Below are positions 37,616-59,514 of a stretch of DNA of 64,000 nucleotides, one piece after another. A program made the translations under genes and the position numbers. Under the pieces are notes generated by a model. The model worked only from the letters and a program-made list of their open reading frames with translations. It was not told the DNA's origin and ran no database searches. Source of the DNA: Escherichia coli (GTDB lineage Bacteria > Pseudomonadota > Gammaproteobacteria > Enterobacterales > Enterobacteriaceae); NCBI RefSeq assembly GCF_011045215.1, contig NZ_CP049201.1, one strand, 5' to 3'. The stretch's first letter is position 1, and every line of letters begins with the position of its first letter.

Positions 37616-37636
37616 AGCATATTCCTGTATCAGTGG

Positions 37637-38431
37637 TTATTGACCATTGTCGCCTTCGCGGGTTAGCCACCAGGCCCCCAGGATCGGCAAGGTTGTTACC
37701 AACATAACCAGCAGTGCCACCACGTTAGTTACCGGTACATCACGCGGTCGCCCAAGCTGATTGAGCAACCACAACGGTAACGTTCGTTCATGACCTGCCG
37801 TAAAGGTCGTAACGATGATTTCATCGAACGACAAGGCAAACGCCAGCATTCCTCCTGCCAGTAATGCCGAACTGAGATTCGGCAACACTACGTAGCGGAA
37901 GGTTTGCCAGCCATTGGCCCCAAGATCCATTGACGCCTCAACCAGACTCCACGAGGTGCGGCGAAAACGGGCGATGACATTGTTAAACACCACAACTACA
38001 CAAAAAGTCGCATGACCGACCACGATGGTGAAAAATCCCGGCTCCAGATTGATGGTTTTAAAGGCGGTTAATAACGCCAGACCAGTGACAATGCCCGGCA
38101 GCGCAATGGGCAGCAGCAGTAACAGCGAAATGGCGTTTTTGCCGAAAAAGTCTCGTCGCCACAGCGCGGCAGCTGCCAGCGTCCCTAACACCAGCGCCAT
38201 TAATGTCGCCAGCGCCGCCACTTTAAGTGACAATGTCACGGCATCAAGAATATCACTACGCTGTGCTGCCACGCTAAACCAGCGCAGCGTCAGGCCCTGC
38301 GGTGGAAAACTAAACGCCGCATCTTCAGTGTTAAACGCATAGGCGGCGATTATCAGGATGGGAAAATGTAGGAAAACAACGCCGCCCCAGGCCGCCAGTT
38401 TGAGGAAAAACGGTGCGCGTTCAGAGTGCAT
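37637..38431 (-). CDS. ydcV: ABC transporter permease YdcV
   Basis: 264 aa multi-TM permease; ydcSTUV operon order. Confidence 0.85.
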
Positions 38432-39362
38432 CGAACGCTCCCAGACGTTTCACGAACGCCAGGTACAGTGCGATAAGAACAATCGGCACCAGGGTGAATG
38501 CCGCCGCCATCGGCATATTGCCAATCGCCCCCTGCTGGGAATAAACCATATTGCCGATAAAATATCCTGGCGGGCCAACCAGCTGCGGGACGATAAAATC
38601 GCCCAGTGTGAGTGAGAAGGTAAAGATAGAGCCAGCGGCAATACCCGGGATCGCCAGCGGCAGCACCACATAGCGAAAGGTTTGTCGTGGACGTGCGCCG
38701 AGATCAGCTGACGCCTGCAACAATGACGGCGGCAAACGCTCAAGCGCCGCCTGCACGGGCAGGATCATGAACGGCAGCCAGATATAGAGAAACACCAGAA
38801 AGCGCCCCAGCCCGGAAGTTGACAGCGTATTGCCGCCCACCGCAGGTAATGTAAGGAACGCAGTCAGCAGTGGTTCCAGCCCAAGATGTTGTAAAAACCA
38901 CTGAGCCACGCCATCTTTTGCCAGCAATAACGTCCAGGCATAGGCTTTAACAATGTAGCTCGCCCACATCGGCAACATTACCGCAATATAAAAAAACGCT
39001 TTCATTTTCCCGCTGGTATAGCGCGCCATATACCACGCCATTGGAAAAGCCAGAATGGCGCTGGCGATAGTGACTGCCACAGCCATAGTCAGCGTGCGGA
39101 GAATGATGTCGTAATTCGCCGGATTAAACAGCGCACGGATATTCGCCAGCGTCAGTTCCGGCGTTACCGACATGGTGAAATCGTCAAAAGTATAAAAGCC
39201 CTGCCATAACAGCGTTAGCAGCGAGCCGAAATAGACAATGCCAAACCACATTAGCGGGCCAAGCAGCAGCAAAAACAGCCCCAGCCCCGGATTCCGCCAG
39301 AAGAAACCGGACACCTTACCCAGACCTGGACGTGAAGGTGATTGCAATACGTTCATCGCCAT
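38421..39362 (-). CDS. ydcU: ABC transporter permease YdcU
   Basis: 313 aa permease; overlaps ydcV start. Confidence 0.85.
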
Positions 39363-40376
39363 TCACCTCTCCTCAACCAGCGGCACCATCACATCACGCG
39401 ACCAGGAAACCATCACCTGTTGTCCGGGCGTGAGCGTGGCAGGCAGTTCTTCGCCTGTCATATTGGCCTGACTCACAAGCAGTTTTTCACCGCCATTCAA
39501 TTTCAGTTCAAAACGGGTCGCTGCGCCCTGATATTGCACCGCCTGGATCGTGCCATTAGCCTGCATTTCGCCGGGGGTATTGAGACGGATATGTTCCGGT
39601 CGCAGGGCGAAGCTTCCCGTCATGCCGCAAAGATTCTCGGCCATTAGCGGATCAAAAACGTTGGATGTCCCGACGAATCCGGCAACAAACGGCGTGCGCG
39701 GGCGCATATAGAGATCGCGCGGGGAATCGACCTGCTCAATGCGTCCATTATTGAAAACCGCCACACGATCGGACATCGATAACGCTTCGCCCTGATCGTG
39801 GGTAACGAAGATAAAAGTGATACCGAGAGACTGTTGCAGTTTTTTCAGTTCCAGCTGCATCTGCTCACGCAATTTGAGATCCAGTGCGCCGAGCGGTTCA
39901 TCCAACAGCAATACGCGCGGTTCATTCACCAATGCTCTGGCGATAGCAACCCGCTGGCACTGACCACCAGAAAGTTGTGACGGTTTACGTTGCTGTACAA
40001 ACCCCAACGCCACTTTCTCCAGCGCCTCTTGCGCCATTGCGTGCCGCTGCTTTTTATTCACGCCTTTGACCATCAGCCCATAGGCGACATTGTCAAGAAT
40101 CGACATATGCGGAAATAGCGCGTAGTCCTGAAAGACAGTATTCACGTCCCGCTCCCACGGTGGCAGATTGCTGGCGGGTTTACCAAAGATAGAGATAGCC
40201 CCGCCGGAAAGCTGTTCGAAGCCAGCAATCAGGCGCAGGCAGGTGGTTTTGCCGGAGCCGGACGGCCCCAGCATAGAGAAGAACTCACCATCTTTTATCG
40301 CAATACTGACGCCATCTACTGCGCGCACGTCACCGTACAACCGCGAGACGTTGTCAAACTCCACTGCGTACGTCAT
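39363..40376 (-). CDS. ydcT: ABC transporter ATP-binding protein YdcT
   Basis: Walker A GPSGSGKTT, signature LSGGQ, Walker B LLLDEP. Confidence 0.9.
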   Translation of the reverse strand: MTYAVEFDNVSRLYGDVRAVDGVSIAIKDGEFFSMLGPSGSGKTTCLRLIAGFEQLSGGAISIFGKPASNLPPWERDVNTVFQDYALFPHMSILDNVAYGLMVKGVNKKQRHAMAQEALEKVALGFVQQRKPSQLSGGQCQRVAIARALVNEPRVLLLDEPLGALDLKLREQMQLELKKLQQSLGITFIFVTHDQGEALSMSDRVAVFNNGRIEQVDSPRDLYMRPRTPFVAGFVGTSNVFDPLMAENLCGMTGSFALRPEHIRLNTPGEMQANGTIQAVQYQGAATRFELKLNGGEKLLVSQANMTGEELPATLTPGQQVMVSWSRDVMVPLVEER

Positions 40377-40393
40377 AAAGCACCCCAGCGAAG

Positions 40394-41539
40394 TTAGCGA
40401 CCGCCCATAATGGCAATGTAATCCTGCGTCCAGCGACTGTAGGGAACAAACTTGCCCCCTTCTGCTATAGGCGTTTTCCAGAAGGCGATTTTGTCGAAAT
40501 AGTTAAAACCGTTGGTTTCACAACCTTTTTCGCCTAATAACGGACTGGCTTTACACCCTTGCGGCACTACCGGTAACGAGCCAAACCAGGCCGCCACATC
40601 GCCCTGCACTTTTGGCGTTAATGACCAGTTCATCCATTTGTAGGCGCAAACCGGATGTTTCGCTTCGCTATGCAGCATGGTGGTATCAGCCCAACCGGTA
40701 ACACCCTCCTTCGGGAAAACGGTAGCAACAGGCTGGCCTTCGGCTTTCAGGGCGTTGGCCTGATAGGGCCAGGCACTGGAAGCAACCACACCCTCGTTTT
40801 TGAAATCGCTCATTTGCACGGTAGTGTCATGCCAGTAGCGATGGATCAAACTGTGTTGAGCGCGCAGCACTTTCAGCACCGCCTGGTACTGTTCTTCGGT
40901 GAGTTGATACGGATCGCTGATGCCCAACTGCGGCTGAGTGGCTTTAACGAACAACGCAGCGTCCGCAATATAGATAGGGCCATCATAAGCCTGAACGCGG
41001 CCTTTATTGCTCTTGCCGTCCGGCAGATTTTGCTCAACAAAAACCACTTGCCAGCTATCCGGCGGCGTCGGGAAGGTTTTAGTGTTGTACATCAGCAGGT
41101 TCGGCCCCCATTGGTAAGGTGTGCCGTAAACTTTGCCGCCAACGTTAAACCAGTCGCCTTTAACCACGCGCGGATCGAGCGTTTTCCAGTTGGGAATCAA
41201 GGCGGTATTAATCGGCTGCACGCGTTTACCCATAATCAAACGCAGCGAGGCATCGCCGGATGCCGTAACCAGATCGTAACCCCCTTTGGTCATCAGACTG
41301 ACCATTTCATCGGAAGTCGCGGCGGTTTTAACATTCACCGCGCAGCCTGTCTCTTTTTCGAATTGCGTTACCCAGTCGTATTGTTTATCAGTTTGTCCGC
41401 GTTCGATATATCCCGGCCAGGCGATAATATCCAGTCGCCCTTCCGGTTTATCTAAATTGGTAGGCGGTTCGGCGGCGTGAGCGGTCATTATTGTCATGCT
41501 GAGCGCACACAGGCTGCTGCGGGCAAATGTCTTGCTCAT
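40394..41539 (-). CDS. ydcS: Periplasmic substrate-binding protein YdcS (polyamine-type)
   Basis: 381 aa with signal peptide; first gene of the ydcSTUV operon. Confidence 0.88.
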   Translation of the reverse strand: MSKTFARSSLCALSMTIMTAHAAEPPTNLDKPEGRLDIIAWPGYIERGQTDKQYDWVTQFEKETGCAVNVKTAATSDEMVSLMTKGGYDLVTASGDASLRLIMGKRVQPINTALIPNWKTLDPRVVKGDWFNVGGKVYGTPYQWGPNLLMYNTKTFPTPPDSWQVVFVEQNLPDGKSNKGRVQAYDGPIYIADAALFVKATQPQLGISDPYQLTEEQYQAVLKVLRAQHSLIHRYWHDTTVQMSDFKNEGVVASSAWPYQANALKAEGQPVATVFPKEGVTGWADTTMLHSEAKHPVCAYKWMNWSLTPKVQGDVAAWFGSLPVVPQGCKASPLLGEKGCETNGFNYFDKIAFWKTPIAEGGKFVPYSRWTQDYIAIMGGR

Positions 41540-41783
41540 AAGGTCTTACTCCTGTCGTAATTAATTGTTCAGCCGCCGTGCCGTAAAAATATCTCCTTGT
41601 TTAACCATAGACGGCGGCTTGCAGGCACACCTTCGCCCCTGAGAAAATTTAATCAGGTTGTGAGCTACCGCGCATTATGCCGTCTGTAAGGTTATCTTCT
41701 GGAGTATAGTCAAGGAGTTAGGAAATATGACTGCTATTCGAAATTCATATTACCCAATCTAAGAGGAATTAAATTAAACGCTA

Positions 41784-43190
41784 TTACAGCCGTTCTTGAA
41801 TAAGTTTGCCTAATTGTTTTACCGCCTGTTCTTCACGTTCTCCCCACTGCCACACGGTATTAAAACGAAAAAAACGTGACCAGTTTTCACCGGTAGAAAA
41901 CATTGTACCCGGCGCAATACTGATATGATGCGTCAGTGCCGCCAGGCTCAATTCGCCGGCATCTAACGGCTCGGGGAGCTCCAGCCAGAGAAAATAACCG
42001 CTGTCATTATGATGAATTTTCACTTCCGCAGGCAGATAACGCAGCAGTGCCTGCCAGGCACGTTGTTTACGTTCCGCAAGCTGGCGACGCAGGCGACGAA
42101 GATGGGCGTCGTATCGGCGCGTGGAAAGGTAATCCACCAGCGCAAGCTGCATCGGTGAGCTGGTGGAAAGCGTACTCATCAACTGCAAGCGTTGAATTTT
42201 ACGTGCATGTTTTCCGGCGGCGACCCAACCAATACGAAAACCAGGCACCAGACATTTCGAAAACGAAGAGCAATGCAAAACGCCATCGTGGCGATCCCAC
42301 GCTTTCGCAGGCAGCGGTTTTTCCCGTCCAAAATAAAGTTCGCTGTAAACGTCATCTTCAATCAGCGTTACGTTGTACTGATTGAGCAACGCCACCAGTT
42401 GTGCTTTTTTTTGCGGCGTTAAGGTAAATCCGAGTGGATTCTGGCTATTAGTCATCAGCCAGCACGCTTTCACCGGATACTCCTGCAACGCCAGTTCCAG
42501 CGCCTGAAGATCGATCCCTTCTTTAACATCCGTCGCCACCGATAACGCCTTCAGCCGTAGCCGCTCCAGCGCCTGCAACGCACCGTAGAAACAAGGATTC
42601 TCTACTATCACCCAATCGCCCGGTTCAGTTACCGCTTGCAAACTGAGGTTTAATGCCTCTAACGCCCCGGCAGTAATGACAATTTCATCAGGAGAAATGG
42701 TGATGCCCTGTAAGGCATAGCGACGGGCAATAGCCTGACGCAGTTCTGCGTTTCCTGGCGGCAAGTTTTCAATCACGCTCATCGCCGTGGCGGTTTTGCT
42801 TACCTGCGCCAGCGAGCGGTTTAGTTGTTGGAGGGGGAAAAGTCGCGGGTCGGGAAAGGCCGAGGCAAACGGAACGACCGACGGATCGCGACTGGCCTGC
42901 AACATATCAAAAATATAAGTGTTGATATCGACTGCTTCATCTCGAGTGACTGGAATGACTGGCGCTTTCGGCATTTTTATTGCCTGTGGCGCAACGTAAT
43001 AACCCGACTGCGGTCGTGCGATAATATATCCCTGACTTTCGAGCAACTGATAGGCATGGCTGACAGTCATAAAGCTCATGCCAGAAAGCGCCACCTGGTC
43101 ACGCAACGAAGGTAAACGATCGCCGGGTTGCCAGATACCCGACGCAATCTGCTCGCGTAATTGTTCTGCAAGCTGCTGGTATTTTTTCAT
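41784..43190 (-). CDS. ydcR: MocR-family transcriptional regulator YdcR (GntR HTH + aminotransferase-like domain)
   Basis: 468 aa; N-terminal HTH followed by a PLP-fold domain; synteny. Confidence 0.85.
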   Translation of the reverse strand: MKKYQQLAEQLREQIASGIWQPGDRLPSLRDQVALSGMSFMTVSHAYQLLESQGYIIARPQSGYYVAPQAIKMPKAPVIPVTRDEAVDINTYIFDMLQASRDPSVVPFASAFPDPRLFPLQQLNRSLAQVSKTATAMSVIENLPPGNAELRQAIARRYALQGITISPDEIVITAGALEALNLSLQAVTEPGDWVIVENPCFYGALQALERLRLKALSVATDVKEGIDLQALELALQEYPVKACWLMTNSQNPLGFTLTPQKKAQLVALLNQYNVTLIEDDVYSELYFGREKPLPAKAWDRHDGVLHCSSFSKCLVPGFRIGWVAAGKHARKIQRLQLMSTLSTSSPMQLALVDYLSTRRYDAHLRRLRRQLAERKQRAWQALLRYLPAEVKIHHNDSGYFLWLELPEPLDAGELSLAALTHHISIAPGTMFSTGENWSRFFRFNTVWQWGEREEQAVKQLGKLIQERL

Positions 43191-43268
43191 TATCGAATCG
43201 TAATTATGTGCAGATGATTCGGCAGTCTATATCAGTTGTTAAAAATGACAACTTTTCGTTAACTGTAA

Positions 43269-43706
<438 letters not shown>

Positions 43707-43730
43707 GTCATTAACCTTTTTAATTGGCGA

Positions 43731-43907
43731 TTAACTCAAACCGAGTTGTTTCAGGATTGCTTTACGCAATGGTTCTTTAATCTCATCGCAGGGGTGACGC
43801 GGCATGACACTGCGCCTCCCATGAAACCTGAGTTTCAAATGGTTGCTGCCATTCGCTACATCGACGCCCTGAGATTCGAGCCAACGTCTGAACTCGCTTT
43901 GTTTCAC
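43731..43907 (-). CDS. hicA: mRNA interferase toxin HicA (58 aa, GTG start)
   Basis: Hand translation of the minus strand gives (V/M)KQSEFRRWLESQGVDVANGSNHLKLRFHGRRSVMPRHPCDEIKEPLRKAILKQLGLS. Below the 60-aa cutoff of the ORF track. Confidence 0.8.
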   Translation of the reverse strand: MKQSEFRRWLESQGVDVANGSNHLKLRFHGRRSVMPRHPCDEIKEPLRKAILKQLGLS

Positions 43908-44128
43908 ATCGCCTCCCTGCCGCTGAGTATATCAACAAAGTAAACATTAGTGTTTACCTCCGTGTGTAATTTGCTCGAAAATAGCACTAAATCGCCGCAA
44001 CGGCAGAATGCAATGCAAAATCAGGAAGGAAGATTCCAGAATTTCTTTGCGCTAATTTGCAAAACTGAATAATAACCTCAAGAAACGATCGGCATCATAG
44101 CGGCAAAAGGTAAGAAAAAGGTGGCAGG

Positions 44129-44359
44129 ATGTTTACGAAGGCGTTATCGGTTGTCTTATTAACGTGTGCGCTGTTCTCAGGACAACTCATGGCAGGGCAC
44201 AAAGGACATGAATTTGTGTGGGTAAAGAATGTGGATCATCAGCTGCGTCATGAAGCAGACAGCGATGAATTGCGTGCTGTGGCGGAAGAGTCGGCGGAAG
44301 GTTTGCGCGAGCATTTTTACTGGCAAAAATCGCGCAAACCAGAAGCGGGACAACGTTGA
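44129..44359 (+). CDS. yncJ: Small exported protein YncJ (76 aa)
   Basis: Signal peptide MFTKALSVVLLTCALFSGQLMA. Confidence 0.8.
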   Translation: MFTKALSVVLLTCALFSGQLMAGHKGHEFVWVKNVDHQLRHEADSDELRAVAEESAEGLREHFYWQKSRKPEAGQR

Positions 44360-44366
44360 GTCGTTT

Positions 44367-44399
44367 GATGCCGGATGCGGCGTAACGCCTTACCCGGCA
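44367..44399. repeat. REP element downstream of yncJ
   Basis: gatgccggatgcggcgtaacgccttacccggca matches the REP consensus. Confidence 0.65.
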
Positions 44400-44450
44400 G
44401 GCAATATCATGCAGATTCAATAAGTTGTGAGTAACCAGAAAACTGGCGTT

Positions 44451-46454
44451 TTACCCTTTTCGCTTCGGCAATGTTTTCAGCAGCTCATCCGGACTTACGG
44501 ATGCCACTACGCTTCCCGGTAACGGCATTTTCAGTATGTGATTTTTGATTTTGCCAATGACGTGCATCTCGCATGGGCGGCAATCAAACTTTAGCGTTAA
44601 TACTTCATCGCCGTTTACCAGTTGCATTGGCGTCGCCTTCCAGCTTTTGATATTGCCTTTCGCCTGTTTCGGGCACAGATTAAAGGCAAAGCGCAGACAA
44701 TGCTTGGTGATCATCACCGGGACTTCGCCCTTCTCTTCATGTGCCTCATACGCCGCGTCAATCAGCTGCACACCATAGCGATGATAAAATTCACGCGCTT
44801 TCTGGTTGTAAACGTTCGCGAGGAAACTCAGATGCGTTTGAGGATAAACCGGCGCAGGATCAGCAACCGGTTTACGGCTGCCGCGCTGGTAACTGGCAAG
44901 ACGCGCAGCATCCAGCATGTCAGCAGCTTCACGGCGGAACTGGTTTAACAGACTGTTTGGTACAAACAGCGCCCCCGGCAAATTAATTTGCACATCGCGG
45001 GCGTAATAGATGGTTTGCCCCAGTTTTGCCAGACCATCCTTCAGATTGTTCATTGCTTTTTCGGCGTTATTGGCTTCGTCGAACTGCCCATCCAGCGTAT
45101 GCGTGATGCTGACCCCCTCTTCACTGGTGAGGGTCAGAATCAGTTGTTCCTGCCAGCCGCCCAGTTCAATGTCTACCGCCACCCGACGTTCGCTGGAGGT
45201 TTTTGTCAGTGCCTGCTGCCAGTTATGATCAAGATTACGGTTTAGTGGGTGATGCGGGCGAATTTTGTGCAAATCTGCTGGCATTTCATTGGGCCAGACG
45301 CGGTACTGATTTTCTCCGGTTTTCTCGACCGTATTGGCACGAAAACCGACGACTTCACGTTTAATCAACACGTTCAGGCCATCGCCATTTGCCAGTGGAT
45401 CGGTAACGGCAACATCGAGATGATCTTTCGCCACTTTCAATACTTCACCCACCGGCAGGCCGATAAATTTCGGCGAATCGAACGCGCCAATATCGCCTTT
45501 ACGGGCATTCACAAAATAATCTGTGCTACCACGATGGAAAGTCTTTTCCGTCGATGGAACAAAGAAATGTTCAGTACGACCTGATGAAGCGCGCGCCAGA
45601 TCGCCACGTTCTTCAATAATGGCATCCAGCATCTGGCGATAATGGGCGGTGATATTCTTCACGTAGCTCATATCTTTGTAACGCCCTTCAATCTTGAAGG
45701 AGCGTACGCCAGCATCAATCAGCGCGCCGAGGTTGGCAGTCTGATTGTTATCTTTCATCGACAGCAGATGTTTTTCATAGGAAACCACCCGCCCCTGATC
45801 GTCTTTCAATGTGTATGGCAAACGGCACGCCTGCGAGCAATCGCCACGGTTGGCGCTACGCCCTGTTTGCGCATGAGAAATGTAGCACTGACCCGAATAG
45901 GCCACGCACAATGCGCCATGAATAAAGAATTCAATGGTCGCGTCCGTGGCCTGGTGAATCGCGCGGATCTGCTCAAGATTCAGCTCTCGCGCCAGCACAA
46001 TCTGCGTGAAGCCAACATCAGAGAGGAACTTCGCTTTTTCTACTGTACGAATGTCGCACTGCGTACTGGCGTGCAGTTCAATCGGCGGAATATCAAGTTC
46101 CAGAATCCCCATATCCTGAACAATCAGCGCATCGACACCGGTCTGGTAGAGGTCGGTAATCAGCCGTTGCGCGGGTTCCAGCTCATCATCATGCAAAATG
46201 GTGTTAAGTGTGACGAAAATTTTTGCACCATAACGATGGGCAAACGGCACCAACTCGGCAATATCTTTCAGGCTATTACTGGCATTATGACGGGCACCAA
46301 AACCAGGGCCGCCGATATAAACAGCATCGGCACCGTGCAAAATAGCTTCGCGGGCAATGGCGGCATCGCGTGCCGGGCTTAACAGTTCAAGTCGATGAGA
46401 AGATACGGTCACATTCTTATCCAGTAGCTGAAAAATGGCGGCTATTTTAGCCAC
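44451..46454 (-). CDS. rlhA: Peptidase U32-family protein YdcP / RlhA (23S rRNA 5-hydroxycytidine synthase); exact start uncertain
   Basis: About 660 aa U32 family protein; synteny between yncJ and ydcN. Confidence 0.85.
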   Translation of the reverse strand: MAKIAAIFQLLDKNVTVSSHRLELLSPARDAAIAREAILHGADAVYIGGPGFGARHNASNSLKDIAELVPFAHRYGAKIFVTLNTILHDDELEPAQRLITDLYQTGVDALIVQDMGILELDIPPIELHASTQCDIRTVEKAKFLSDVGFTQIVLARELNLEQIRAIHQATDATIEFFIHGALCVAYSGQCYISHAQTGRSANRGDCSQACRLPYTLKDDQGRVVSYEKHLLSMKDNNQTANLGALIDAGVRSFKIEGRYKDMSYVKNITAHYRQMLDAIIEERGDLARASSGRTEHFFVPSTEKTFHRGSTDYFVNARKGDIGAFDSPKFIGLPVGEVLKVAKDHLDVAVTDPLANGDGLNVLIKREVVGFRANTVEKTGENQYRVWPNEMPADLHKIRPHHPLNRNLDHNWQQALTKTSSERRVAVDIELGGWQEQLILTLTSEEGVSITHTLDGQFDEANNAEKAMNNLKDGLAKLGQTIYYARDVQINLPGALFVPNSLLNQFRREAADMLDAARLASYQRGSRKPVADPAPVYPQTHLSFLANVYNQKAREFYHRYGVQLIDAAYEAHEEKGEVPVMITKHCLRFAFNLCPKQAKGNIKSWKATPMQLVNGDEVLTLKFDCRPCEMHVIGKIKNHILKMPLPGSVVASVSPDELLKTLPKRKG

Positions 46455-46484
46455 AAGCGCGACGTTGCGAAATAGTTTTCCCGC

Positions 46485-47036
46485 TTAACTGCGCGGGTAA
46501 TGGATGAGGGAATGAAAATGTACGGTTTGCTCCCCACCATTACGATAGACATGCGTGACGTCTGCAGCAAATCGAACGCCTTCCCCACAATTAAGGCTCT
46601 GCCATTCACCATCAACGCACAGATCAAGTTGTCCATCAATGACGACGACATGTTCGATTACCCCCTTCTCATGGGGCGTCGATTCGCTTATTGCACCGGG
46701 TGCCATCTGAATCGAGAAGTGTTCAAAGCAGAGTTGTGGATCATAAGGAAACAGCGAAGTGATCACCATCGCCTGCTGTTGTGGATCATAAACTGAAGGC
46801 GTAGCGGACTGTGGCGGAGAAATAAATGTCGAAAATGGCACGTTCAACCCAGTGGCAATTTTCCATAATGTCGCGACCGTCGGGCTGGACTCATTACGCT
46901 CAATCTGTCCTAACATTGCTTTAGAAACGCCCGTCGCTTCTGCCAGTCGCGAAAGACTCCAGCCGCGCTGCTGACGTAGTTGTTTAAGTGTGGTGGTAAA
47001 AAGCGAGCGAGATTTTCCATGCGACTCCTCCGGCAA
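46485..47036 (-). CDS. ydcN: XRE-family HTH regulator with cupin domain, YdcN
   Basis: N-terminal HTH (LKQLRQQRGWSLSRLAEATGVSKAMLGQIER) and C-terminal cupin. Confidence 0.85.
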   Translation of the reverse strand: MPEESHGKSRSLFTTTLKQLRQQRGWSLSRLAEATGVSKAMLGQIERNESSPTVATLWKIATGLNVPFSTFISPPQSATPSVYDPQQQAMVITSLFPYDPQLCFEHFSIQMAPGAISESTPHEKGVIEHVVVIDGQLDLCVDGEWQSLNCGEGVRFAADVTHVYRNGGEQTVHFHSLIHYPRS

Positions 47037-47111
47037 AACGGAAGTTTATCACTTGTGCGTTATAACGGACAAATGCTACGGTACCTGTACGCTATAACGC
47101 ACGAGGTGACT

Positions 47112-48284
47112 ATGCGTCTGTTTTCTGTTCCTCCACCCACGCTACTGGCGGGGTTTCTGGCGGTATTAATTGGCTACGCCAGTTCAGCGGCAATAATCTG
47201 GCAAGCAGCGATTGTCGCCGGAGCCTCCACTGCACAAATCTCTGGCTGGATGACGGCGCTGGGGTTGGCAATGGGCGTCAGTACGCTGACTCTGACATTA
47301 TGGTATCGCGTACCTGTTCTCACCGCATGGTCAACGCCTGGCGCGGCTTTGTTGGTCACCGGATTGCAGGGACTAACACTTAACGAAGCCATCGGCGTTT
47401 TTATTGTCACCAACGCGTTAATAGTCCTCTGCGGCATAACGGGACTCTTTGCTCGTCTGATGCGCATTATTCCGCACTCGCTTGCGGCGGCAATGCTTGC
47501 CGGGATTTTATTACGCTTTGGTTTACAGGCGTTTGCCAGTCTGGACGGTCAATTTACGTTGTGTGGAAGTATGTTGCTGGTATGGCTGGCAACCAAGGCC
47601 GTTGCGCCGCGCTATGCGGTAATTGCCGCGATGATTATTGGGATCGTGATCGTTATCGCGCAAGGTGACGTTGTCACAACTGATGTTGTCTTTAAACCCG
47701 TTCTCCCCTCTTATATTACCCCTGATTTTTCGTTTGCTCACAGCCTGAGCGTTGCACTCCCCCTTTTTCTGGTGACGATGGCATCGCAAAACGCACCGGG
47801 TATCGCAGCAATGAAAGCAGCCGGATATTCAACTCCTGTTTCGCCATTAATTGTATTTACTGGATTGCTGGCACTGTTTTTTTCCCCTTTCGGCGTTTAT
47901 TCAGTCGGTATTGCGGCAATCACCGCGGCTATTTGCCAAAGCCCGGAAGCGCATCCGGATAAAGATCAACGTTGGCTGGCAGCTGCCGTTGCAGGCATTT
48001 TCTATTTGCTCGCAGGTCTGTTTGGTAGTGCCATTACCGGGATGATGGCTGCCCTGCCCGTAAGTTGGATCCTGATGCTGGCAGGTCTGGCTCTGCTAAG
48101 TACTATTGGCGGCAGTTTGTATCAGGCGCTGCATAATGAGCGTGAGCGAGACGCGGCGGTGGTGGCATTTCTGGTAACGGCAAGTGGATTGACGCTGGTC
48201 GGGATTGGTTCTGCGTTTTGGGGATTAATTGCCGGAGGCGTTAGTTACGTGGTGTTGAATTTAATCGCTGACAGAAACCGATAA
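47112..48284 (+). CDS. ydcO: BenE-family transporter YdcO
   Basis: MRLFSVPPPTLLAGFLAVLIGYASSAAIIW; 390 aa multi-TM protein. Confidence 0.85.
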   Translation: MRLFSVPPPTLLAGFLAVLIGYASSAAIIWQAAIVAGASTAQISGWMTALGLAMGVSTLTLTLWYRVPVLTAWSTPGAALLVTGLQGLTLNEAIGVFIVTNALIVLCGITGLFARLMRIIPHSLAAAMLAGILLRFGLQAFASLDGQFTLCGSMLLVWLATKAVAPRYAVIAAMIIGIVIVIAQGDVVTTDVVFKPVLPSYITPDFSFAHSLSVALPLFLVTMASQNAPGIAAMKAAGYSTPVSPLIVFTGLLALFFSPFGVYSVGIAAITAAICQSPEAHPDKDQRWLAAAVAGIFYLLAGLFGSAITGMMAALPVSWILMLAGLALLSTIGGSLYQALHNERERDAAVVAFLVTASGLTLVGIGSAFWGLIAGGVSYVVLNLIADRNR

Positions 48285-48290
48285 TAAAAA

Positions 48291-48310
48291 GCGCCATCTA
48301 ACGATGGCGC
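48291..48310. terminator. Hairpin terminator between ydcO and ydcL
   Basis: gcgccatc-taac-gatggcgc perfect inverted repeat. Confidence 0.55.
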
Positions 48311-48318
48311 AACTGGTA

Positions 48319-48987
48319 TTACTTTTTGTTAACGTCAAACATGGTGGCATCGGTCGCCATGTCATCAATAACTTGTTTAATATTTTCGAAAGCCATTGGC
48401 GTACTTTCGTTATTCAGGTCTTTACCTTCGCCCTGACGAACGACTTTGATAACCGGTTTATTAGTCGCTGCATCAATCAGCTCACCTTCAAAATAGAGGC
48501 GAGTATCCATGGTACGGTGGCCTGTAGCCATTTGCGTCCCCGCAACCACTAATGCAACAGGAACCACTTCATAGAATTGCAGCCCTTCTTTGCTGGTATC
48601 TACACCGGTAATGGCCCCACGGAAAATCAGACTACGCGGCCCAGCGGTGGTAACCAGTGGTTTACGCTGCGCTATCGCTTCTTTCATTTCGGTGTTGGTA
48701 TAGTTCAAAATTTTATCCAGAACTTTCTGCCCTACCTGGGTTGAAGGTTTCGGTACCGGATAATAAGTGATTGGGTTCCAGACGATGCTGTCATATTTGC
48801 TTTGATCAAAACTCGGGTCTACCCAACGTAAAACCGGTTTACCTGTAGCCGAGGTTGTTTCTTTTAAATCAGAGTAATTGTTTAAAAAACCAGAATATTT
48901 ATCTGGCTGGGTGATTTTAGAGGCACAACCAGACAGAGCCAACAAGCCGCATAAAGCTGCAACTTTCGCAAATGATGTGGTACGCAT
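48319..48987 (-). CDS. ydcL: Lipoprotein YdcL (222 aa)
   Basis: Lipobox LALSGC in MRTTSFAKVAALCGLLALSGCASK. Confidence 0.85.
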   Translation of the reverse strand: MRTTSFAKVAALCGLLALSGCASKITQPDKYSGFLNNYSDLKETTSATGKPVLRWVDPSFDQSKYDSIVWNPITYYPVPKPSTQVGQKVLDKILNYTNTEMKEAIAQRKPLVTTAGPRSLIFRGAITGVDTSKEGLQFYEVVPVALVVAGTQMATGHRTMDTRLYFEGELIDAATNKPVIKVVRQGEGKDLNNESTPMAFENIKQVIDDMATDATMFDVNKK

Positions 48988-49289
48988 GAATAGTTTCCTG
49001 AGATGATTATATTACTTTTTAAGTTATAGCAAAAAGCGCCGCTTCGTGTTGTGGCAAAAAAAGTGTTGGTGAAAATAAATTTTTTAGCCCCTTTTCAGAC
49101 GACATAGTCAATGCCGAAAAAGGGGCTAAGTCAATCATCAGTAGTTAAATTTCAGTAAGTTAAGCTGCTAAAAAACTTCGACTACTGTGATTAATTTCAC
49201 ATCCCTTCGATAAAAAATATGCTTACCGAAAAGAAGAACAGTAAACCATCTCAGCGTGGGGAATTTTCACGTGCTTTGTTCTTACCGGG

Positions 49290-49883
49290 TCATTTTTTAC
49301 GTGCCAGCATCGTGGCGAAACGCAGTTTAATACGATTACCGTTGGCGTCGGTGCGGTGCAGCTCGCCGACGTCCTCATTGTATTTCACCATCTCCCAGTC
49401 TTCGTAATATCGACGTAATTCTCCCTCTTTGAAGGCAAATGGGAAGCCGACGGTACATGGATAATCAGCGGTATCCATCGCCGCCACAATCAGGTTGTAA
49501 CCGCCAGGTTTCGTGCAACGTTGCATATTGGCAATCAGCCCTGGGATGGTTTTAGCCTCAAGGAACATCAGCACCACAGTCGAAAGAATAAAATCGTACT
49601 GTCCAGCAAATGTGAGGTTATTCAGATCAACGACCCGGGTGTGTAAATTATCCAGATTTTCAATAGATTTAATGCGCTCGACGTTGGCGATACTCATGGC
49701 ATTTTTATCCCATGCGTCAACATCATAACCATTGGCTGCCAGGTAAAGACTGTTACGACCATTGCCACAGCCCAGATCCAGCGTTTTACCCGGTTTAACC
49801 ACTTTCACCGCTTCCAGTACTTCAGAGTGTGTGCGGGTTAATTCATATTTATCAGTAAAATAGTTTTCGTCACGAATGATCAT
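49290..49883 (-). CDS. tehB: Tellurite methyltransferase TehB (SAM-dependent)
   Basis: 197 aa; SAM motif [15 protein letters not shown]. Confidence 0.9.
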
Positions 49884-50872
49884 TCTTTGTCCTCTGCTTT
49901 CATTAAAACGGCGCGCTCGGTTCTGACTAACAATTTTCCCTGCATCAGAAGCGCAAAAGTACGGATGAGCAGTATTGCAATAATAAAATTGGTAAAGATA
50001 AACAGCGGCACCGCCAGCGTATGGAAAAATCCATTATCGCTGCCACTCCCCAGATGCAAACCGGTGGTTGCCAGTGCAGATACGCCGAACGAGAAACTCC
50101 AGAATGAAGCATTAAATGGCTGGGAGAGATACCATGGCATCAGACGTAGCATAAACAGCAGTTGCAGCAGTCCATAACCGAAAAGCATTTTCGCCAGCGT
50201 GTCACCCTCGCCGCCGTTGACGCTCAGCCAGGCACTACAGGCCACCAGCGCAGGAGCGAGTTGAATGCCGAGAGATGTCCGCAGTGCCGTGGGTAATTCT
50301 CCCGAACTGCGCAGACGCTGCAAGATCACCGGTTCAAGGCTTAGCCATGAGAAAACGCCTGCGCCTAAAAACACCAGACCGGCGTCGGTGTAGCCCAACG
50401 CACCACAGGCCATTGCGCTGATAAAGTTGTTGGCAACTGTCGGCAGATACAGTCCAGGCGTGGTAGCTTCTTCAGGGTGAGATCCGCGCCATAATCCCGC
50501 AGTTTGCCAGGCGGCATAAGCCAACTGAACCACGACACCAAAACTGAACAGGCACACCGCCAGTGGGCGAAACCACGGAACAAAACCAATCGCCACCAGC
50601 ATCGTCGTTGCCGGAAACAAACTCACAAAACTGCTCAGCACTGGATGGCGAACTTCCGCCAGCACGCTATGCGGAAAGCGTATGAGTCGGGTAATAAATG
50701 CGCTAGTCAATAATCCCCAGATGATCATCGCCAGAATCACCAGCCCATCCCCTAACCAGTGGCTGACCTGCCAAACCTGGCTGGCATAGCGCCAGGCAAA
50801 TCCCATCCCTATCGTCCCCAACACAATACCAAAGTAGCCTGCCGGCAAATTGAGCACTTTATCGCTCTGCAT
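49880..50872 (-). CDS. tehA: Tellurite resistance / dicarboxylate-transporter-family membrane protein TehA (330 aa)
   Basis: [30 protein letters not shown]; 3' end overlaps tehB start. Confidence 0.9.
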
Positions 50873-50995
50873 CTTCTTACTCATTTTGTTTAATTTATAA
50901 AGTATATTTGAAATGCATTTTATGGAATTTTCTCGAGCATAGCCAGAGCCGCAGAATTTGCTACGGTTATAGTAAGTCACCTGTGGGAAAACGCT

Positions 50996-51976
50996 ATGCG
51001 CAAATATCGTCTAAGTGAAGAACAGCGAGCCTTTAGTTATCAGGAAGATGGCACTAAAAAAAATGTGTTATTACGGCAGATTATCGCCATTAGCGATTTT
51101 AACGATGTGATAGCAGGAACCGCTGGCGGCTGGATCGATCGCGAAACGGTGTTAGCACAGGAAGGAAATTGCTGGATTTACGACCAGAATGCTATTGCGT
51201 TCGGCGGAACGGTGATTTCCGGTAATACGCGCATCACCGGCACCAGCGTACTGTGGGGAGAGGTTTACGCAACGGATAATGTCTGGATCGATAATAGTGA
51301 AATCAGCCAGGGTGCATATATAAGTGACAGTGTCACCATTCATGACTCACTGGTTTGCGGTCAATGTAGAATATTTGGTCACGCCTTAATTGATCAACAT
51401 TCTATGATCGTCGCCGCACAAGGCTTAACGCCCGACCATCAACTCCTGCTCCAAATTTATGATCGCGCAAGGGTTAGCGCCTCGCGTATTGTCCACCAGG
51501 CACAAATTTATGGCGATGCCGTCATCCGGTATGCTTTTATTGAACATCGCGCCGAAGTTTTTGATTTTGCCAGTATTGAAGGTAATGAAGAGAACAACGT
51601 CTGGCTATGCGATTGCGCTAAAGTCTACGGTCACGCGCAGGTGAAAGCTGGCATAGAAGAAGATGCCATTCCAACGATTCATTACAGTTCGCAGGTGGCG
51701 GAATATGCCATTGTGGAAGGTAATTGTGTGTTAAAACATCATGTCTTGATTGGCGGAAATGCCGTGGTACGTGGCGGACCGATTCTGCTCGACGAGCACG
51801 TTGTAATACAAGGTGAGAGCCGTATTACAGGTGCGGTGATAATTGAAAACCATGTGGAGTTAACCGACCACGCCGTCGTTGAAGCCTTTGATGGCGACAC
51901 GGTTCATGTCCGTGGTCCAAAAGTCATTAACGGCGAGGAGCGCATTACGCGAACGCCGCTGGCAGGGTTATTATGA
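50996..51976 (+). CDS. ydcK: Hexapeptide-repeat protein YdcK (326 aa)
   Basis: Left-handed beta-helix repeats; synteny. Confidence 0.85.
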
Positions 51977-52507
51977 ATCGATAATACGCGCGTATAAGTT
52001 CACATCATCATAGGCATCATTCAGGAACTCAGCCTGTTTCAGGCAACCTTCAAGGATAAAACCATTGCGCAAAGCGACCTGGTTGCTTTGCGGATTGTCC
52101 ACCCGACATTTGATCACGAAGCGTCTAAGTTCACCAGACTGGGCGTAATGATGAATCAGTGCCTGCAGCGCCTGAGAAATGATCCCCTGCCCCTGATGAG
52201 ATTCGTCCAGCCAGTAGCCGATTTCAGCGGTTTTATTCAGTGGTTCAATACGATTAAACGAGATAACGCCGATAAGTTCATCTTCTTTGAAAATCATGAA
52301 CATTTTGGCATAGCCGCGTTGATGCAACATCACATTACCCTGCACCGTTTTTCGCGTGTCCTCTTCACTCTGAACGAACTGCGGCCAGTTTAGCGACTGC
52401 TGTAACCAGGTTTTATTTTTACAGATTAACTGATAAAGAGGAGTGACGTGATTTTCTGCAACAGCATGTAATTCAAGTGATTCGCTTACTTTTATCGTTT
52501 CAGTCAT
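51971..52507 (-). CDS. rimL: Ribosomal protein L7/L12-serine acetyltransferase RimL (GNAT)
   Basis: [27 protein letters not shown]. Confidence 0.85.
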
Positions 52508-52569
52508 CTTATCTCCAGTCAATCCATGCAGTTGTTAAAAAAGCCGCCTGGCTGGCGGCTTAGGAAAGT

Positions 52570-52794
52570 TTACACCTCTTTGACGCTCTCATGCTGCAGG
52601 ATTTTGAGCATCTCATCTTTTAACTGTAGCTTTTGTTTTTTCATGCGGACCACTTCCGCATTGTACCCTCGACCGTCGGAACCTTCCTTTCTGGCAATTT
52701 CATGATCAAGTTTATTGTGTTTATCGAACAAGGACATAAAGCGAGGATTTTCGTTTTTCAGACGGGATATTAAATCTCGATATTCTGGAAACAT
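52570..52794 (-). CDS. ydcH: DUF465-family small protein YdcH (74 aa)
   Basis: MFPEYRDLISRLKNENPRFMSLFDKHNKLDHEI. Confidence 0.8.
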   Translation of the reverse strand: MFPEYRDLISRLKNENPRFMSLFDKHNKLDHEIARKEGSDGRGYNAEVVRMKKQKLQLKDEMLKILQHESVKEV

Positions 52795-52933
52795 ACGCAC
52801 TCCCTGTTAGTGGCTGACAAGGTGTATCTGAAATACACACCATCAGATTACTCATTTAACTTAGGGAAAAATGCGAGCGGGATCGTGTTTAACCAGACGG
52901 CACCTCCCGAAGAAGGTGCCGAAGAAAAAACGA

Positions 52934-54589
52934 TTAACTCATCACGCGGTCGTCAACATACTGACGTTTATCCGGCGCTGGCGGGAAATACTGATACAGC
53001 CATGTTTCACTGATAGCGTCCCCCTGACAACGCAGATACATCCGCATATCGACCGGATCAGTGGAGTCCGACGTCGGATACCAGTCAAACTGAATACGAT
53101 AACCATCAATGGGTTCAATATAGAGAATTTCGATTTGCTTCGCTTCCCCACTGGAAAGCGTAATCACCGGCTCAATGCCTTTTGGTGCGGCAGCTTTCAG
53201 ATCACCACCAACGAAATCGACGGCAAAACGACGCGCCCATTTTTCGGGATAGTGTTCACCTGGCGCCCAACCTTCCGGGAAACCGCCCATGCCGGTACGC
53301 GTCGCCATAACGCGCGCTAATGGGCAATGAACAGGCGGTTGCGCACTCCAGTACAGACGATACTGGAATGCAAACTCATCACCCGCTTTTACAGCTTTTT
53401 CTGGCTGCCAGAAGCAGACAATGTTATCCAGCGTTTCGCCCGTTGTTGGGATTTCCATCAGGCCGATGGTGCCCTTACCCCACTTGTTACGCGGTTCCAC
53501 CCACAGACTTGGGCGTTTGTTATACCAGCCCATAATGTCCTGATAATGGGAGAAGTCACGATCCAGTTGCAATAAACCAAACCCTTTCGGGTTGTTGTCG
53601 GTGTAAGCATTGAACTGCAATTTTTGCGGATTATTCAGCGGACGGCAAATCCACTCGCCGTTGCCCCGCCACATGGACAGACGATCAGAGTCATGAATTT
53701 GCGGATGAATGGTATCGCACATCCGACGTTCATTAGTACCGCAGCTGAACATACTGGTCATCGGCGCAATGCCCAGCTGTTTAATGTCTTTGCGCGCATA
53801 CAGGTGATTTTCCACATCCATAATCACCTGACTTTTCTCACAATGGATAGTGAACTTATAGGCACCAGTAATGCTGGCGCTATCGAGCAACGCATAAACG
53901 GTAAAGGTAGTTGCCCCCGGTTTTACCGTATCAAACCAGAAGGCGGTAAAGTCGGGGAACTCTTCTTTACTGTCGGTGTAAGTGTCAATCGCCAGGCCGC
54001 GGGCCGACAAACCGTATTGATATGTGTCATCAACGGCGCGGAAATAACTCGCTCCGAGGAATGATACTACATCACGGCGCGCCAGTTCGGGGGCTTTAAA
54101 CACGCGAAAACCGGCAAAGCCGAGATCGCTTTGCCCTTCTAATTGTTTGGTATCAACACCTGCATCGTTGTATTTGAACAACTCCGGGCGAAAGTGAATT
54201 TCACGCGCCAGATGTGTTGCTGGATCTACAGAAAACATACGAACGCGGCGACGGAATCCCATTCCCATATGGAAGAACTGAGCGTCCAGTTGACGGTTCT
54301 CAACGTTATGCCAGAGCGATTTTTCGGCGTCGTATTGAATACTGTTATAAGCCTGCGGCGTCATTGTCGCCAGCGTGTCAGGTAACGGACGAGGCGCACC
54401 ACGCCACGCTGTTTGCGCTAAGTCGTGCGCCATTGACTGTAGAATGGAGAAGTCAAAACGCTGGGTTTGCCCGTCGGCAATATCAGAATCTGCCGCGAAT
54501 GCCGCCTGAGAAAAAAGAGAAGCAATGCCGCTGGTACCGCACACGGCGGCCATAGCCATTGAACCTTTAATAAATCGTCTACGATCCAT
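52934..54589 (-). CDS. opgD: Osmoregulated periplasmic glucan biosynthesis protein OpgD (MdoD), Tat-exported
   Basis: 551 aa; twin-arginine signal [18 protein letters not shown]. Confidence 0.9.
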
Positions 54590-54813
54590 ACCTGAAAGTG
54601 AGTCCTTCTGGTGTTGTGAATGGTCCCGCGCTGGTCGTTTTCAGCGGCAAGAAAGTGCTTATTTATGACCGCTCACTCTAGACAATATTTATTAATAATC
54701 CAATTGTTGAACTCAGAGAATATGCATAAATCGGCAATTTTTTTATGTCGATGGGATGAGCCTGATTCGTTTGTAAAATCAGGCAAATTTTTGCAAAGGC
54801 GGATGGTCAGAAT

Positions 54814-56157
54814 TTAAAGCAAACCACAGCGATGTTTACTGCGTTCTTCCGCTTCCTGATAAAGCTGGAACTCATCCAAAACAGGACAACCCAACGCCTG
54901 CTCAAATGCCTCGCGACTGGCATTACCGTGATTGCGTGCCTGCGTTTCATTACCCAGATTTGACTGGAAGATCCCCGCCGCGCTAACGGGCAAGAAATCT
55001 TCATAGGTAATGGGTTGCGCCGCGACCCAACCACGTTCAATTAAGGGCTGTGGATCGTCTCCGGGATGAATCGCCTGACGATGCGCCTCACCTGAAGGCG
55101 TCAGACGGTACCGGAACCATGCCAGCCCTTGCTGACGCATTAAAAACTCACTGTCAGGAAAAGTGCGGAAGGTTTCCTGTAAATGCATTTGGTGAGTGAG
55201 ATTATCCTGCCCGGTTCCAGCGTTACGCAGAAGATCATCATACAGTTGTCGCCCTTTCGGCGTTAATGCCACGCCACGCTGCTCAATTTCACCAAAGCGC
55301 GCGGTATGCGTGCCCTGTTTCTGCCCCGCAAACAACACCATCTCTTCCAGTGCCTTAAAGCTGGTCTGCCGTAGTAAAATCAGCACCTCGCGGCGCGGCG
55401 GCCCTTCGATCAGAATTTTGGGTTCAATCCCGCATTCAGGCATCATCGACTGCACCCGGTCAATATCCAGCGTACGTGGCGTCAGGTGGTTGATATGGCA
55501 TCCAGGGAAACAGACCACATCAGCAATCAACCGATGTTCGTTGTGCAAGGCGCGATAGGTTTCTTCATCTACCGTTGCTGACTGGTGCCAACGGAACGTT
55601 TCCAGGGCTTCCTGCACAAACTCCTGTGCCTGTGTTTCGTTAAAACCGCCCTGCTGCTCATATTCCTCTAACAGTTGTCGACAACGTGGGGTGAAGATAT
55701 CGCGCTGACGCAGAATCTCCGCCGCTTTCTGGCGCAAAATTTCGTTCTCGATAAGCTCAAGGCGGAGTAAGGAGGTAAAAACGCGGAAGGGATTACGCGC
55801 CAGAGAAGCATCATCAATGGGCCGAAATGCTGTCGAATGTACCGGCACCCCTGCCTGCGAGAGATCGTAATAGCTCACCGGGTACATCCCCATAATGGCA
55901 AACATCCGCCGAAGAGTAGCAAGCTCTTGTGCAGTCCCAACGCGAATCGCCCCATGACGTTCAACATTCAGTCGCGCCAGCTCGTCTGCATTTACCATTT
56001 TTTCGTGCAGTTGAGGATTGTTTTCCAGCACAGCCAGATTCACATCAGCTACCAGTTCCAGCAGCGTGCCATATTGCGGAACTTCTTGCTGGTACATGGC
56101 TGACATTGCCTGCGAAAACTGTTCCCGAATCTCATCCGCCGTGATGCTGTTCGCCAT
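54814..56157 (-). CDS. ydcJ: DUF1338-family protein YdcJ (447 aa)
   Basis: Length and synteny between opgD and ydcI. Confidence 0.85.
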   Translation of the reverse strand: MANSITADEIREQFSQAMSAMYQQEVPQYGTLLELVADVNLAVLENNPQLHEKMVNADELARLNVERHGAIRVGTAQELATLRRMFAIMGMYPVSYYDLSQAGVPVHSTAFRPIDDASLARNPFRVFTSLLRLELIENEILRQKAAEILRQRDIFTPRCRQLLEEYEQQGGFNETQAQEFVQEALETFRWHQSATVDEETYRALHNEHRLIADVVCFPGCHINHLTPRTLDIDRVQSMMPECGIEPKILIEGPPRREVLILLRQTSFKALEEMVLFAGQKQGTHTARFGEIEQRGVALTPKGRQLYDDLLRNAGTGQDNLTHQMHLQETFRTFPDSEFLMRQQGLAWFRYRLTPSGEAHRQAIHPGDDPQPLIERGWVAAQPITYEDFLPVSAAGIFQSNLGNETQARNHGNASREAFEQALGCPVLDEFQLYQEAEERSKHRCGLL

Positions 56158-56373
56158 AGTGTCTGCCTCCAGTGGTCAGTAATGTGGAGTGTAGGTAACC
56201 GCATTCACTCTGGCGGGAAGAATTTACAAACTGTGATCTCGCCGCGAAAACATCAATATTATCCATTTTGCTGTAACATAATTGCTTTAATTGTTAATAA
56301 TATTTTGCAATCAAGTTATCATAATCAAACAACTTCACTTGTCAGCGACACCGCTTCGTTTTTAACATCGCTT

Positions 56374-57297
56374 ATGGAAAAAAATAGTCTGTTTAGTCAG
56401 CGCATCCGTTTGCGCCACCTTCATACATTCGTAGCTGTCGCACAACAAGGAACTTTGGGGCGCGCGGCTGAAACCCTTAATTTGAGTCAACCTGCGCTCT
56501 CTAAGACATTGAATGAACTGGAGCAACTGACGGGCGCTCGCTTGTTTGAGCGTGGTCGTCAGGGGGCGCAACTTACCTTACCCGGCGAACAATTTTTAAC
56601 GCATGCAGTCAGAGTTCTTGACGCCATCAACACTGCTGGACAGTCGCTTCATCGTAAAGAAGGTCTTAATAATGATGTCGTCAGGGTTGGTGCACTACCT
56701 ACTGCGGCACTGGGGATATTACCTTCGGTTATAGGTCAGTTTCATCAGCAACAAAAAGAGACGACCTTGCAAGTTGCGACAATGAGTAACCCTATGATTC
56801 TGGCGGGTTTGAAAACCGGGGAAATCGATATCGGCATTGGTCGGATGTCAGATCCTGAACTGATGACCGGGCTTAATTACGAACTGCTGTTTCTTGAATC
56901 GCTGAAGCTGGTTGTCCGCCCTAATCACCCGCTACTTCAGGAGAACGTAACGCTAAGCCGGGTGCTGGAATGGCCGGTCGTTGTATCACCAGAAGGCACT
57001 GCACCACGCCAGCATTCAGATGCATTAGTACAGAGCCAGGGATGTAAAATTCCTTCGGGTTGTATCGAAACGCTGTCTGCTTCGCTATCTCGTCAACTTA
57101 CGGTTGAATACGACTACGTGTGGTTTGTCCCTTCTGGCGCGGTAAAAGACGACCTGCGTCATGCCACGCTGGTGGCCCTGCCTGTTCCGGGACATGGTGC
57201 AGGCGAACCGATTGGAATACTGACCCGCGTAGATGCGACGTTCTCTTCTGGTTGCCAGTTGATGATTAACGCTATTCGAAAATCAATGCCGTTCTGA
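56374..57297 (+). CDS. ydcI: LysR-family transcriptional regulator YdcI (307 aa)
   Basis: LysR HTH IRLRHLHTFVAVAQQGTLGRAAETLNLSQPALSKTLNELE. Confidence 0.88.
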   Translation: MEKNSLFSQRIRLRHLHTFVAVAQQGTLGRAAETLNLSQPALSKTLNELEQLTGARLFERGRQGAQLTLPGEQFLTHAVRVLDAINTAGQSLHRKEGLNNDVVRVGALPTAALGILPSVIGQFHQQQKETTLQVATMSNPMILAGLKTGEIDIGIGRMSDPELMTGLNYELLFLESLKLVVRPNHPLLQENVTLSRVLEWPVVVSPEGTAPRQHSDALVQSQGCKIPSGCIETLSASLSRQLTVEYDYVWFVPSGAVKDDLRHATLVALPVPGHGAGEPIGILTRVDATFSSGCQLMINAIRKSMPF

Positions 57298-57304
57298 AAG
57301 GTGA

Positions 57305-57326
57305 AGGGATCTGTCGATCCCTCCTT
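57305..57326. terminator. Hairpin terminator between ydcI and trg
   Basis: agggatc-tgtc-gatccct inverted repeat between convergent genes. Confidence 0.5.
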
Positions 57327-57334
57327 TAACATTT

Positions 57335-58975: not shown

Positions 58976-59261
58976 TACCGTTGTCTCTCGTCCAGGTTTA
59001 CTCCTGATAGAAAGTCATCGGCACTTGACGGTAATTACTTATGACCAAATACCTCTTTGCGTCACATTTTTACAACAATTATTGCAGAGAAAATTAATGC
59101 TATTGGAATGAAGAGAGTAACGAATGGCTAAACCGAATGACGAAAAATTCTGGAAAACAGCACGCAATTTCGTGAAGTGATTATTTTCGTCCCTAAGGAA
59201 ACCTCATAGGATGCCTGCGGGTGCCTGAGACTTTCTGTTTTCAGGCTAACCGGGAATCAGA

Positions 59262-59306
59262 AAGACGAAGGCCCCGACCGATATTTCTATCAACCGAGGC
59301 CAACGA

Positions 59307-59317: not shown

Positions 59318-59514
<197 letters not shown>

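Follow-up and report, generated by a model that had tools for sequence, protein, structure and literature searches.

An uninterrupted ydcO-ydcL junction in Escherichia coli as a probable never-occupied target site of IS609

Insertion sequences of the IS608 and ISDra2 type move as single strands, insert 3' of a fixed motif without duplicating their target, and excise seamlessly. The motif is TTAC for IS608 of Helicobacter pylori and TTGAT for ISDra2 of Deinococcus radiodurans, and in the TnpB-carrying members the same motif doubles as the target-adjacent motif (TAM). TnpB of these elements works with an RNA from the right end of the element whose guide is the flanking DNA, and it cuts the empty site formed by the TAM and the target. 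IS609 resembles IS608 and ISDra2 in inserting 3' of a fixed motif with no target duplication, but its motif is TTAT instead, and its tnpA and tnpB genes are divergent, unlike the paradigm set by those two elements. The literature that we found on the function of IS609 or of its TnpB homologue InsQ consisted of surveys and mobile-element lists, and we did not find biochemistry. In a survey of TnpB-carrying insertion sequences, the cleavage site reported most often was TTAT at the left end and TCAA at the right end (PMC9956272).

In E. coli K-12 MG1655 (NC_000913.3), "insertion sequence:IS609" is annotated at 1503161-1504908. It is 1748 bp long, lies between ydcL (b1431) and ydcO (b1433), and holds insQ (b1432), which is the tnpB gene, and the tnpA pseudogene yncK (b4578). 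The stretch of E. coli DNA analyzed here, referred to below as the window, is 64 kb long and carries ydcO and ydcL side by side. A preliminary description of the window named an IS609-type insertion between these genes in K-12 and read its absence, together with three other features, as a sign that the source is not K-12.

Anatomy of the ydcO-ydcL junction

The features of the junction are as follows, with the basis of each assignment in brackets.

47112-48284, plus strand: ydcO, BenE-family transporter of 390 aa ending in ...ADRNR* (open reading frame list; TIGR00843, E 3e-210; translation compared with K-12)
48264-48283, minus strand: the stretch that forms the IS609 right-end flank in K-12, TATCGGTTTCTGTCAGCGAT (34/34 nt identical to the K-12 flank)
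48281-48310, minus strand: predicted intrinsic terminator of ydcL, hairpin and T-tract (terminator scan; RNA fold)
48283-48284, no strand: insertion point of the K-12 IS609, uninterrupted in the window (blastn breakpoints; junction sequences; half-matches in occupied genomes)
48284-48287, minus strand: TTAT, target (cleavage) motif of the IS609 left end, present intact with no element inserted (flank motif at 5/5 IS609 sites)
48285-48318, no strand: ydcO-ydcL intergenic spacer, 34 bp (open reading frame boundaries)
48319-48987, minus strand: ydcL, DUF3313 lipoprotein of 222 aa (open reading frame list; DUF3313, E 4e-63)

The two genes are convergent, and the separation of 34 bp given in the preliminary description is borne out by the reading frames, which end at 48284 and start at 48319. 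The length of 390 aa for YdcO is counted from the K-12 start codon (47112); a longer ydcO from an upstream start is annotated in some RefSeq records. The ydcO stop codon is TAA at 48282-48284. The YdcL protein is identical in sequence to that of K-12, and its gene ends in TAA in the window versus TAG in K-12.

Most of the spacer is taken up by a stem-loop. On the minus strand, GCGCCATC-GTTA-GATGGCGC at 48310-48291 is followed by the tail TTTTTATTAT at 48290-48281. The hairpin begins 8 nt past the ydcL stop codon, and the terminator scan gives it a stem of 8 pairs, 6 of them GC, and a loop of 4 nt. The RNA fold has a free energy of -17.2 kcal/mol (z -3.8), and none of 200 shuffled sequences was equally stable. 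A GC-rich stem-loop followed by a U-tract, located downstream of the ydcL stop codon and on the ydcL strand, has the makeup of a rho-independent terminator, and the sequence fits a hairpin and T-tract that would terminate ydcL transcription. We also considered the hairpin as a terminator for ydcO. On the plus strand the stem lacks an equivalent T-tract directly behind it, and only the minus strand is called by the scan, so that this was rejected and the hairpin is read as the ydcL terminator. A search for the exact hairpin (AAAAGCGCCATCTAACGATGGCGC) among GTDB species representatives found nothing, and the spacer and IS609 matched no Rfam family at the gathering threshold. The T-tract of this predicted terminator ends in the TTAT motif (48287-48284), which shares bases with the complement of the ydcO stop codon.

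Alignment of the whole window by blastn to MG1655 1480000-1579999 showed an arrangement that differs from that of K-12. Window positions 36190-48283 align to MG1655 1517003-1504909, and positions 48284-64000 align to 1503160-1487437. Since these blocks abut at 48283/48284, the 1748 bp of IS609 are exactly what the window is without, and the K-12 element does lie at precisely this junction, as the preliminary description had it. The interval singled out in the preliminary description, 48285-48318, is indeed the spacer, but the K-12 insertion point falls 1 bp to the left of it, within the TAA stop codon of ydcO. The K-12 sequence reads CCGATA / 1748 bp / ATAAAAAG, versus CCGATAATAAAAAG in the window. 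With more of each end included, the K-12 junction is ...AACCGATA / TTGACATCC...(IS609)...GCGCACCGG / ATAAAAAGCGCC... and the window junction is ...AACCGATAATAAAAAGCGCC.... The minus strand of the window across the insertion point is GCGCTTTTTAT^TATCGGTTTC. Subtraction of IS609 from the occupied allele yields the empty allele exactly, with no target duplication, scar or boundary ambiguity. At the junction the K-12 flanks match the window base for base, over 34 nt towards ydcO and, towards ydcL, over the TTAT, T-tract and hairpin; the K-12 spacer differs from that of the window at 4 positions 3' of the hairpin. Neither the K-12 IS609 nor IS200C, a second element found at this junction in other strains (see below), matched anything in the whole 64-kb window (blastn, E<=1e-3).

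The insertion alters the end of YdcO in K-12. The K-12 protein has 391 aa (...DRNRY*) versus 390 aa (...DRNR*) in the window. It gains one C-terminal Tyr because the insertion splits the TAA codon and the IS609 right end supplies T and TGA, giving TAT-TGA; in MG1655 the right end thus overlaps the end of ydcO (1504905-1504908).

The IS609 target motif and the predicted TnpB target

To define the ends and flanks of IS609 we compared five independent insertions, located at ydcL/ydcO, in yedK, in a DUF3251 gene, in a TetR gene next to ytfB, and at gltX/yfeD. At 5/5 sites ...TTAT stands directly before a base-perfect left end (CCGGTGCGCC...), and the right end finishes in ...GGATGTCAA (...GTCAA) at all five. 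Both motifs agree with those of the published survey (PMC9956272). InsQ contains the OrfB_IS605, Cas12f1-like TNB and HTH_OrfB domains, as in a TnpB. The intact TnpA of the O157:H7 copy at the TetR site is a Y1 transposase.

In the empty site, the TATCGGTTTCTGTCAGCGAT stretch stands directly 3' of TTAT. Since TTAT and the next 34 nt match the right-end flank of K-12 exactly, the window allele is the predicted target of a K-12-type resident IS609. By analogy with the TnpB-carrying elements described above, the omega-RNA of such a resident copy would have TTAT as its TAM and the adjacent 20 nt as its target, and the empty allele could serve as a natural substrate for the K-12 TnpB homologue. The K-12 strand that runs from TTAT through the left end to the right end is the plus strand at 1.50 Mb, in the clockwise replichore. 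We infer that it would be the lagging-strand template, as is the expectation for the family.

The right end of IS609 in MG1655 gives a sub-threshold match to the Rfam family HgcC (22 bits, E 0.019, gathering score 50) that spans the 3' end of insQ and the right end of the element and runs 10 nt into the flank. This match lies where a TnpB omega-RNA would be expected, and we take it as a hint and not as evidence. On the K-12 right end, permissive Rfam settings return nothing beyond sub-threshold matches to HgcC and RAGATH-18, which likewise are no more than a hint.

States of the site among E. coli genomes

We searched 5,426 complete RefSeq E. coli genomes and counted matches at >=80% query coverage; the figures are therefore search counts and not curated alignments. 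The uninterrupted site was found in approximately 2,043 of the 5,426 genomes (~38%) with a 200 bp query centred on the junction. IS609 at ydcO/ydcL was found in 3,251 genomes (~60%) with the K-12 element and 500 bp on either side as the query, and IS200C at the same place in 91 genomes with an IS200C construct. In the interrupted genomes sampled, the match to the 200 bp query ends at query position 100, which corresponds to window position 48283, except in one record with the IS200C allele, where it ends at position 105. Counted at any location, IS609 was present in 5,015 genomes, and the median number of places among these was two. O157:H7 strains and other non-K-12 strains (NZ_CP012802.1, NZ_OZ197100.1) have the same uninterrupted 34-bp junction in their RefSeq annotation, and the O157:H7 strains carry IS609 elsewhere in the genome. 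The empty state of the window is thus a common allele and an ordinary, already known presence/absence polymorphism. It is visible in public RefSeq annotation and in itself matters little.

The IS200C alleles (NZ_CP196099.1, NZ_CP086334.1) show a second element of the IS200/IS605 family, oriented like IS609 and lying in the same A/T run, which separates the ydcO stop codon from the hairpin of the predicted ydcL terminator. The IS200C insertion point is 3-5 bp nearer the hairpin than that of IS609 and is equivalent to window positions 48286-48290, the boundary being ambiguous within the T-run. IS200C also differs from IS609 in its size of ~0.7 kb, in carrying tnpA only, and in keeping the ydcO stop codon intact. 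Given this spacing, one 10-bp stretch has been hit by two different IS200/IS605-family elements, which is a modest gain from the comparison. Another is that IS609 targets a TTAT that ends the T-tract of the predicted ydcL terminator, and in doing so has split the ydcO stop codon of K-12 and added one Tyr; along with the rare haplotype patch described below, this terminator target and the one-codon change in ydcO are the points worth keeping.

As a strain marker the empty junction is correct, in that it places the source outside K-12 and outside the ~60% of complete genomes with IS609 at ydcL/ydcO. The missing IS609 alone says little about the source, because an empty site is common to ~38% of complete E. 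coli genomes, O157:H7 included. The remaining features named in the preliminary description were also seen on alignment. gapC is intact and encodes a 333-aa type I GAPDH (60723-61724, plus strand), and K-12 has a pseudogene. The VgrG island proved to be a 660-aa VgrG (22178-24160, minus strand) inside a 7.5-kb segment that replaces K-12 rhsE/ydcD/yncI/ydcC. The porin is a full-length 366-aa OmpC-family protein (1509-2609, plus strand), of which K-12 has only the yddL fragment. Hence all four K-12 markers differ in the window (IS609 at ydcL/ydcO, the gapC pseudogene, the yddL fragment and the rhsE remnant), and the aligned blocks are just 97.6-98.8% identical to MG1655. The source belongs to E. 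coli sensu stricto but is not K-12, as had been proposed.

Origin of the empty site

For elements of the IS200/IS605 family, a site that was never occupied and one that was precisely excised are identical in sequence. We consider it likely that the 34-bp junction is an unoccupied, ancestral-type IS609 target site and that the window DNA never received the insertion. The spacer would be mainly the rho-independent terminator of ydcL, and the last four bases of its T-tract, read on the minus strand, would provide TTAT. IS609, a member of the IS200/IS605 family that would transpose as single-stranded DNA by the mechanism of IS608 and ISDra2, would have integrated directly 3' of this TTAT in the line of descent of K-12 and ~60% of the E. 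coli genomes sequenced. Integration would have proceeded with no target duplication, as is typical of the family, splitting the ydcO stop codon and adding one Tyr. The junction itself would have no function of its own beyond ending ydcL transcription.

The ancestral state was examined with an outgroup. Scanning a degenerate pattern of the YdcO C-terminus across GTDB species representatives returned one genome, CP089930.1 (labelled E. coli strain E69, 4.44 Mb). Its identity to the window is ~89% over 13 kb of the ydcO-ydcJ region, and identity this low suggests a separate species-level Escherichia lineage, probably another Escherichia species or a cryptic clade. CP089930.1 carries the same empty 34-bp junction, CCGATA-ATAAGAAGCGCCATCTTACGATGGCGCAACTGGCATTAC. 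Because this single outgroup record is empty, the empty state is read as ancestral and the K-12 insertion as derived.

The spacer alleles agree with this polarity. The spacer haplotype of the window is GCGCAACTGGTATTAC. Its sequence 3' of the hairpin is AACTGGTATTAC, whereas the common E. coli allele, also found in O157:H7 and other empty strains, is GTCTGGAACTAC. The two alleles differ at 4 positions, and the window matches CP089930.1 at 3 of these, so that it is nearer the 89%-identical outgroup. Both have 48311A, 48312A and 48319T, and all four aligned strains that carry IS609 at the site (MG1655, JNE151685, RM10042 and XJ34) have G, T and C. The base-by-base comparison covered these four occupied strains and six other E. 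coli haplotypes.

The junction also lies on a patch of unusual sequence, the last of the features to be listed.

48073-49440, no strand: rare haplotype patch of ~1.4 kb that spans the junction (private-allele density)

Alleles private to the window make up ~0.9% of positions in 48073-49440 versus ~0.09% elsewhere in 46.7-59.6 kb, which is ~10 times denser. Four of them fall within 32 bp (48073-48104) and result in YdcO Q321L. Among 5,417 complete genomes, the best full-length match to the 1.39-kb patch is 98.6-98.7% identical. The closest flanking haplotype is that of XJ34, which bears IS609. XJ34 is identical to the window over 47266-48072 and 49879-51062, and its 25 mismatches to the window are all in 48073-49878. 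On a larger scale, the nearest complete RefSeq E. coli genomes are <=99.0% identical to the window over 36-61 kb and <=99.5% identical over 88% of 1-25 kb. A rare patch in a common background is the signature of a small recombination event, and the patch resembles a short stretch imported from a lineage that was not sampled.

This patch bears on the best of the alternative explanations, loss of IS609 by allelic replacement. An XJ34-like, IS609-bearing background would have imported ~1.4-1.8 kb from a divergent donor with an empty site; the import would have swapped the 3' end of ydcO, the junction and ydcL, and IS609 would have been deleted with them. As XJ34, the nearest flank haplotype, is occupied, the window lineage may once have had IS609 and lost it in this way. 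The identity to XJ34 on both flanks, the confinement of all 25 differences to 48073-49878, the roughly 0.9% versus 0.09% density of private alleles and the lack of any complete genome more than 98.7% identical to the patch are all consistent with such an event. However, the reverse event would give the same pattern, with an ancestor of XJ34 importing a common-type, IS609-bearing patch into an empty background. In addition, E. coli is mosaic everywhere in this region, and XJ34 is the one closely related flank haplotype found. We therefore regard allelic replacement as possible but doubtful. Its more specific form, a natural loss in which an XJ34-like lineage had its junction replaced by ~1.4-1.8 kb of DNA from an unsampled, divergent Escherichia lineage, we consider unlikely. 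If true, the empty allele would keep a perfect TTAT and a guide-matching target, and the case would be a documented escape, via homologous replacement, from TnpB-enforced retention of the element. Whichever way the import went, a never-occupied allele is the simplest account of the DNA that the junction has today.

Precise excision, in which the Y1 transposase TnpA would have cut an earlier IS609 seamlessly out of this very DNA and restored the original junction, is very improbable. Scarless excision is an established property of the family members IS608 and ISDra2, and the junction has the form of a perfect empty site. Some E. coli strains also have an intact TnpA, as in the O157:H7 copy at the TetR site. 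The spacer alleles nevertheless argue against it. Every IS609-bearing allele sampled has other bases than the window spacer at 4 positions, and at 3 of these the window matches the outgroup; since the sampled IS609-bearing strains all have the common spacer, excision from a sampled haplotype would not give the window spacer. Furthermore, the IS609 copy at ydcL/ydcO has tnpA as a pseudogene in each of the four occupied strains inspected, the window holds no IS609 that could supply TnpA, and a resident TnpB, by analogy with those of related elements, would probably cut the site left by excision. IS609 also showed no movement in K-12 mutation-accumulation lines (PMC5009759).

An assembly artefact, in which a copy of IS609 was collapsed or dropped from the source genome, is hardly credible: repeats can collapse in draft assemblies and IS609 occupies a median of 2 places per carrier genome, but nothing specific points to this here, the junction is base-perfect and recurs uninterrupted in 2,043 complete genomes and the outgroup, and an intact TAA stop codon plus terminator would not result from a collapse.

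The window differs from MG1655 in several further places. A 1.3-kb segment of low GC content (30-36%) at 34877-36189, between patD and yncL, is not in MG1655. An insertion sequence was considered and ruled out, since the segment proved to be a low-GC cassette carrying a gene for a CatB/Vat-like acetyltransferase. Its reading frame at 35172-35981 (minus strand) encodes a 269-aa hexapeptide-repeat O-acetyltransferase that is related to CatB/Vat and scores below the cut-offs of those families. The cassette is present in ~1,154 of 5,415 complete genomes, where it is annotated "CatB-related O-acetyltransferase". The 7.5-kb segment that stands in place of K-12 rhsE/ydcD/yncI/ydcC extends over 17450-25004 and includes the VgrG gene at 22178-24160 (minus strand). 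After VgrG come reading frames of 348 aa and 479 aa that have no NCBIfam match and may encode effector or adaptor proteins. Extra sequence is also found at 1793-4290, in the yddK (leucine-rich repeat) region adjoining the OmpC-family porin. Two RNAs in the window, and only these two, score above the Rfam gathering threshold: the sok antitoxin RNA of hokB/sokB (59219-59370, plus strand) and the RydC sRNA (59930-59993, plus strand), both where K-12 predicts them.
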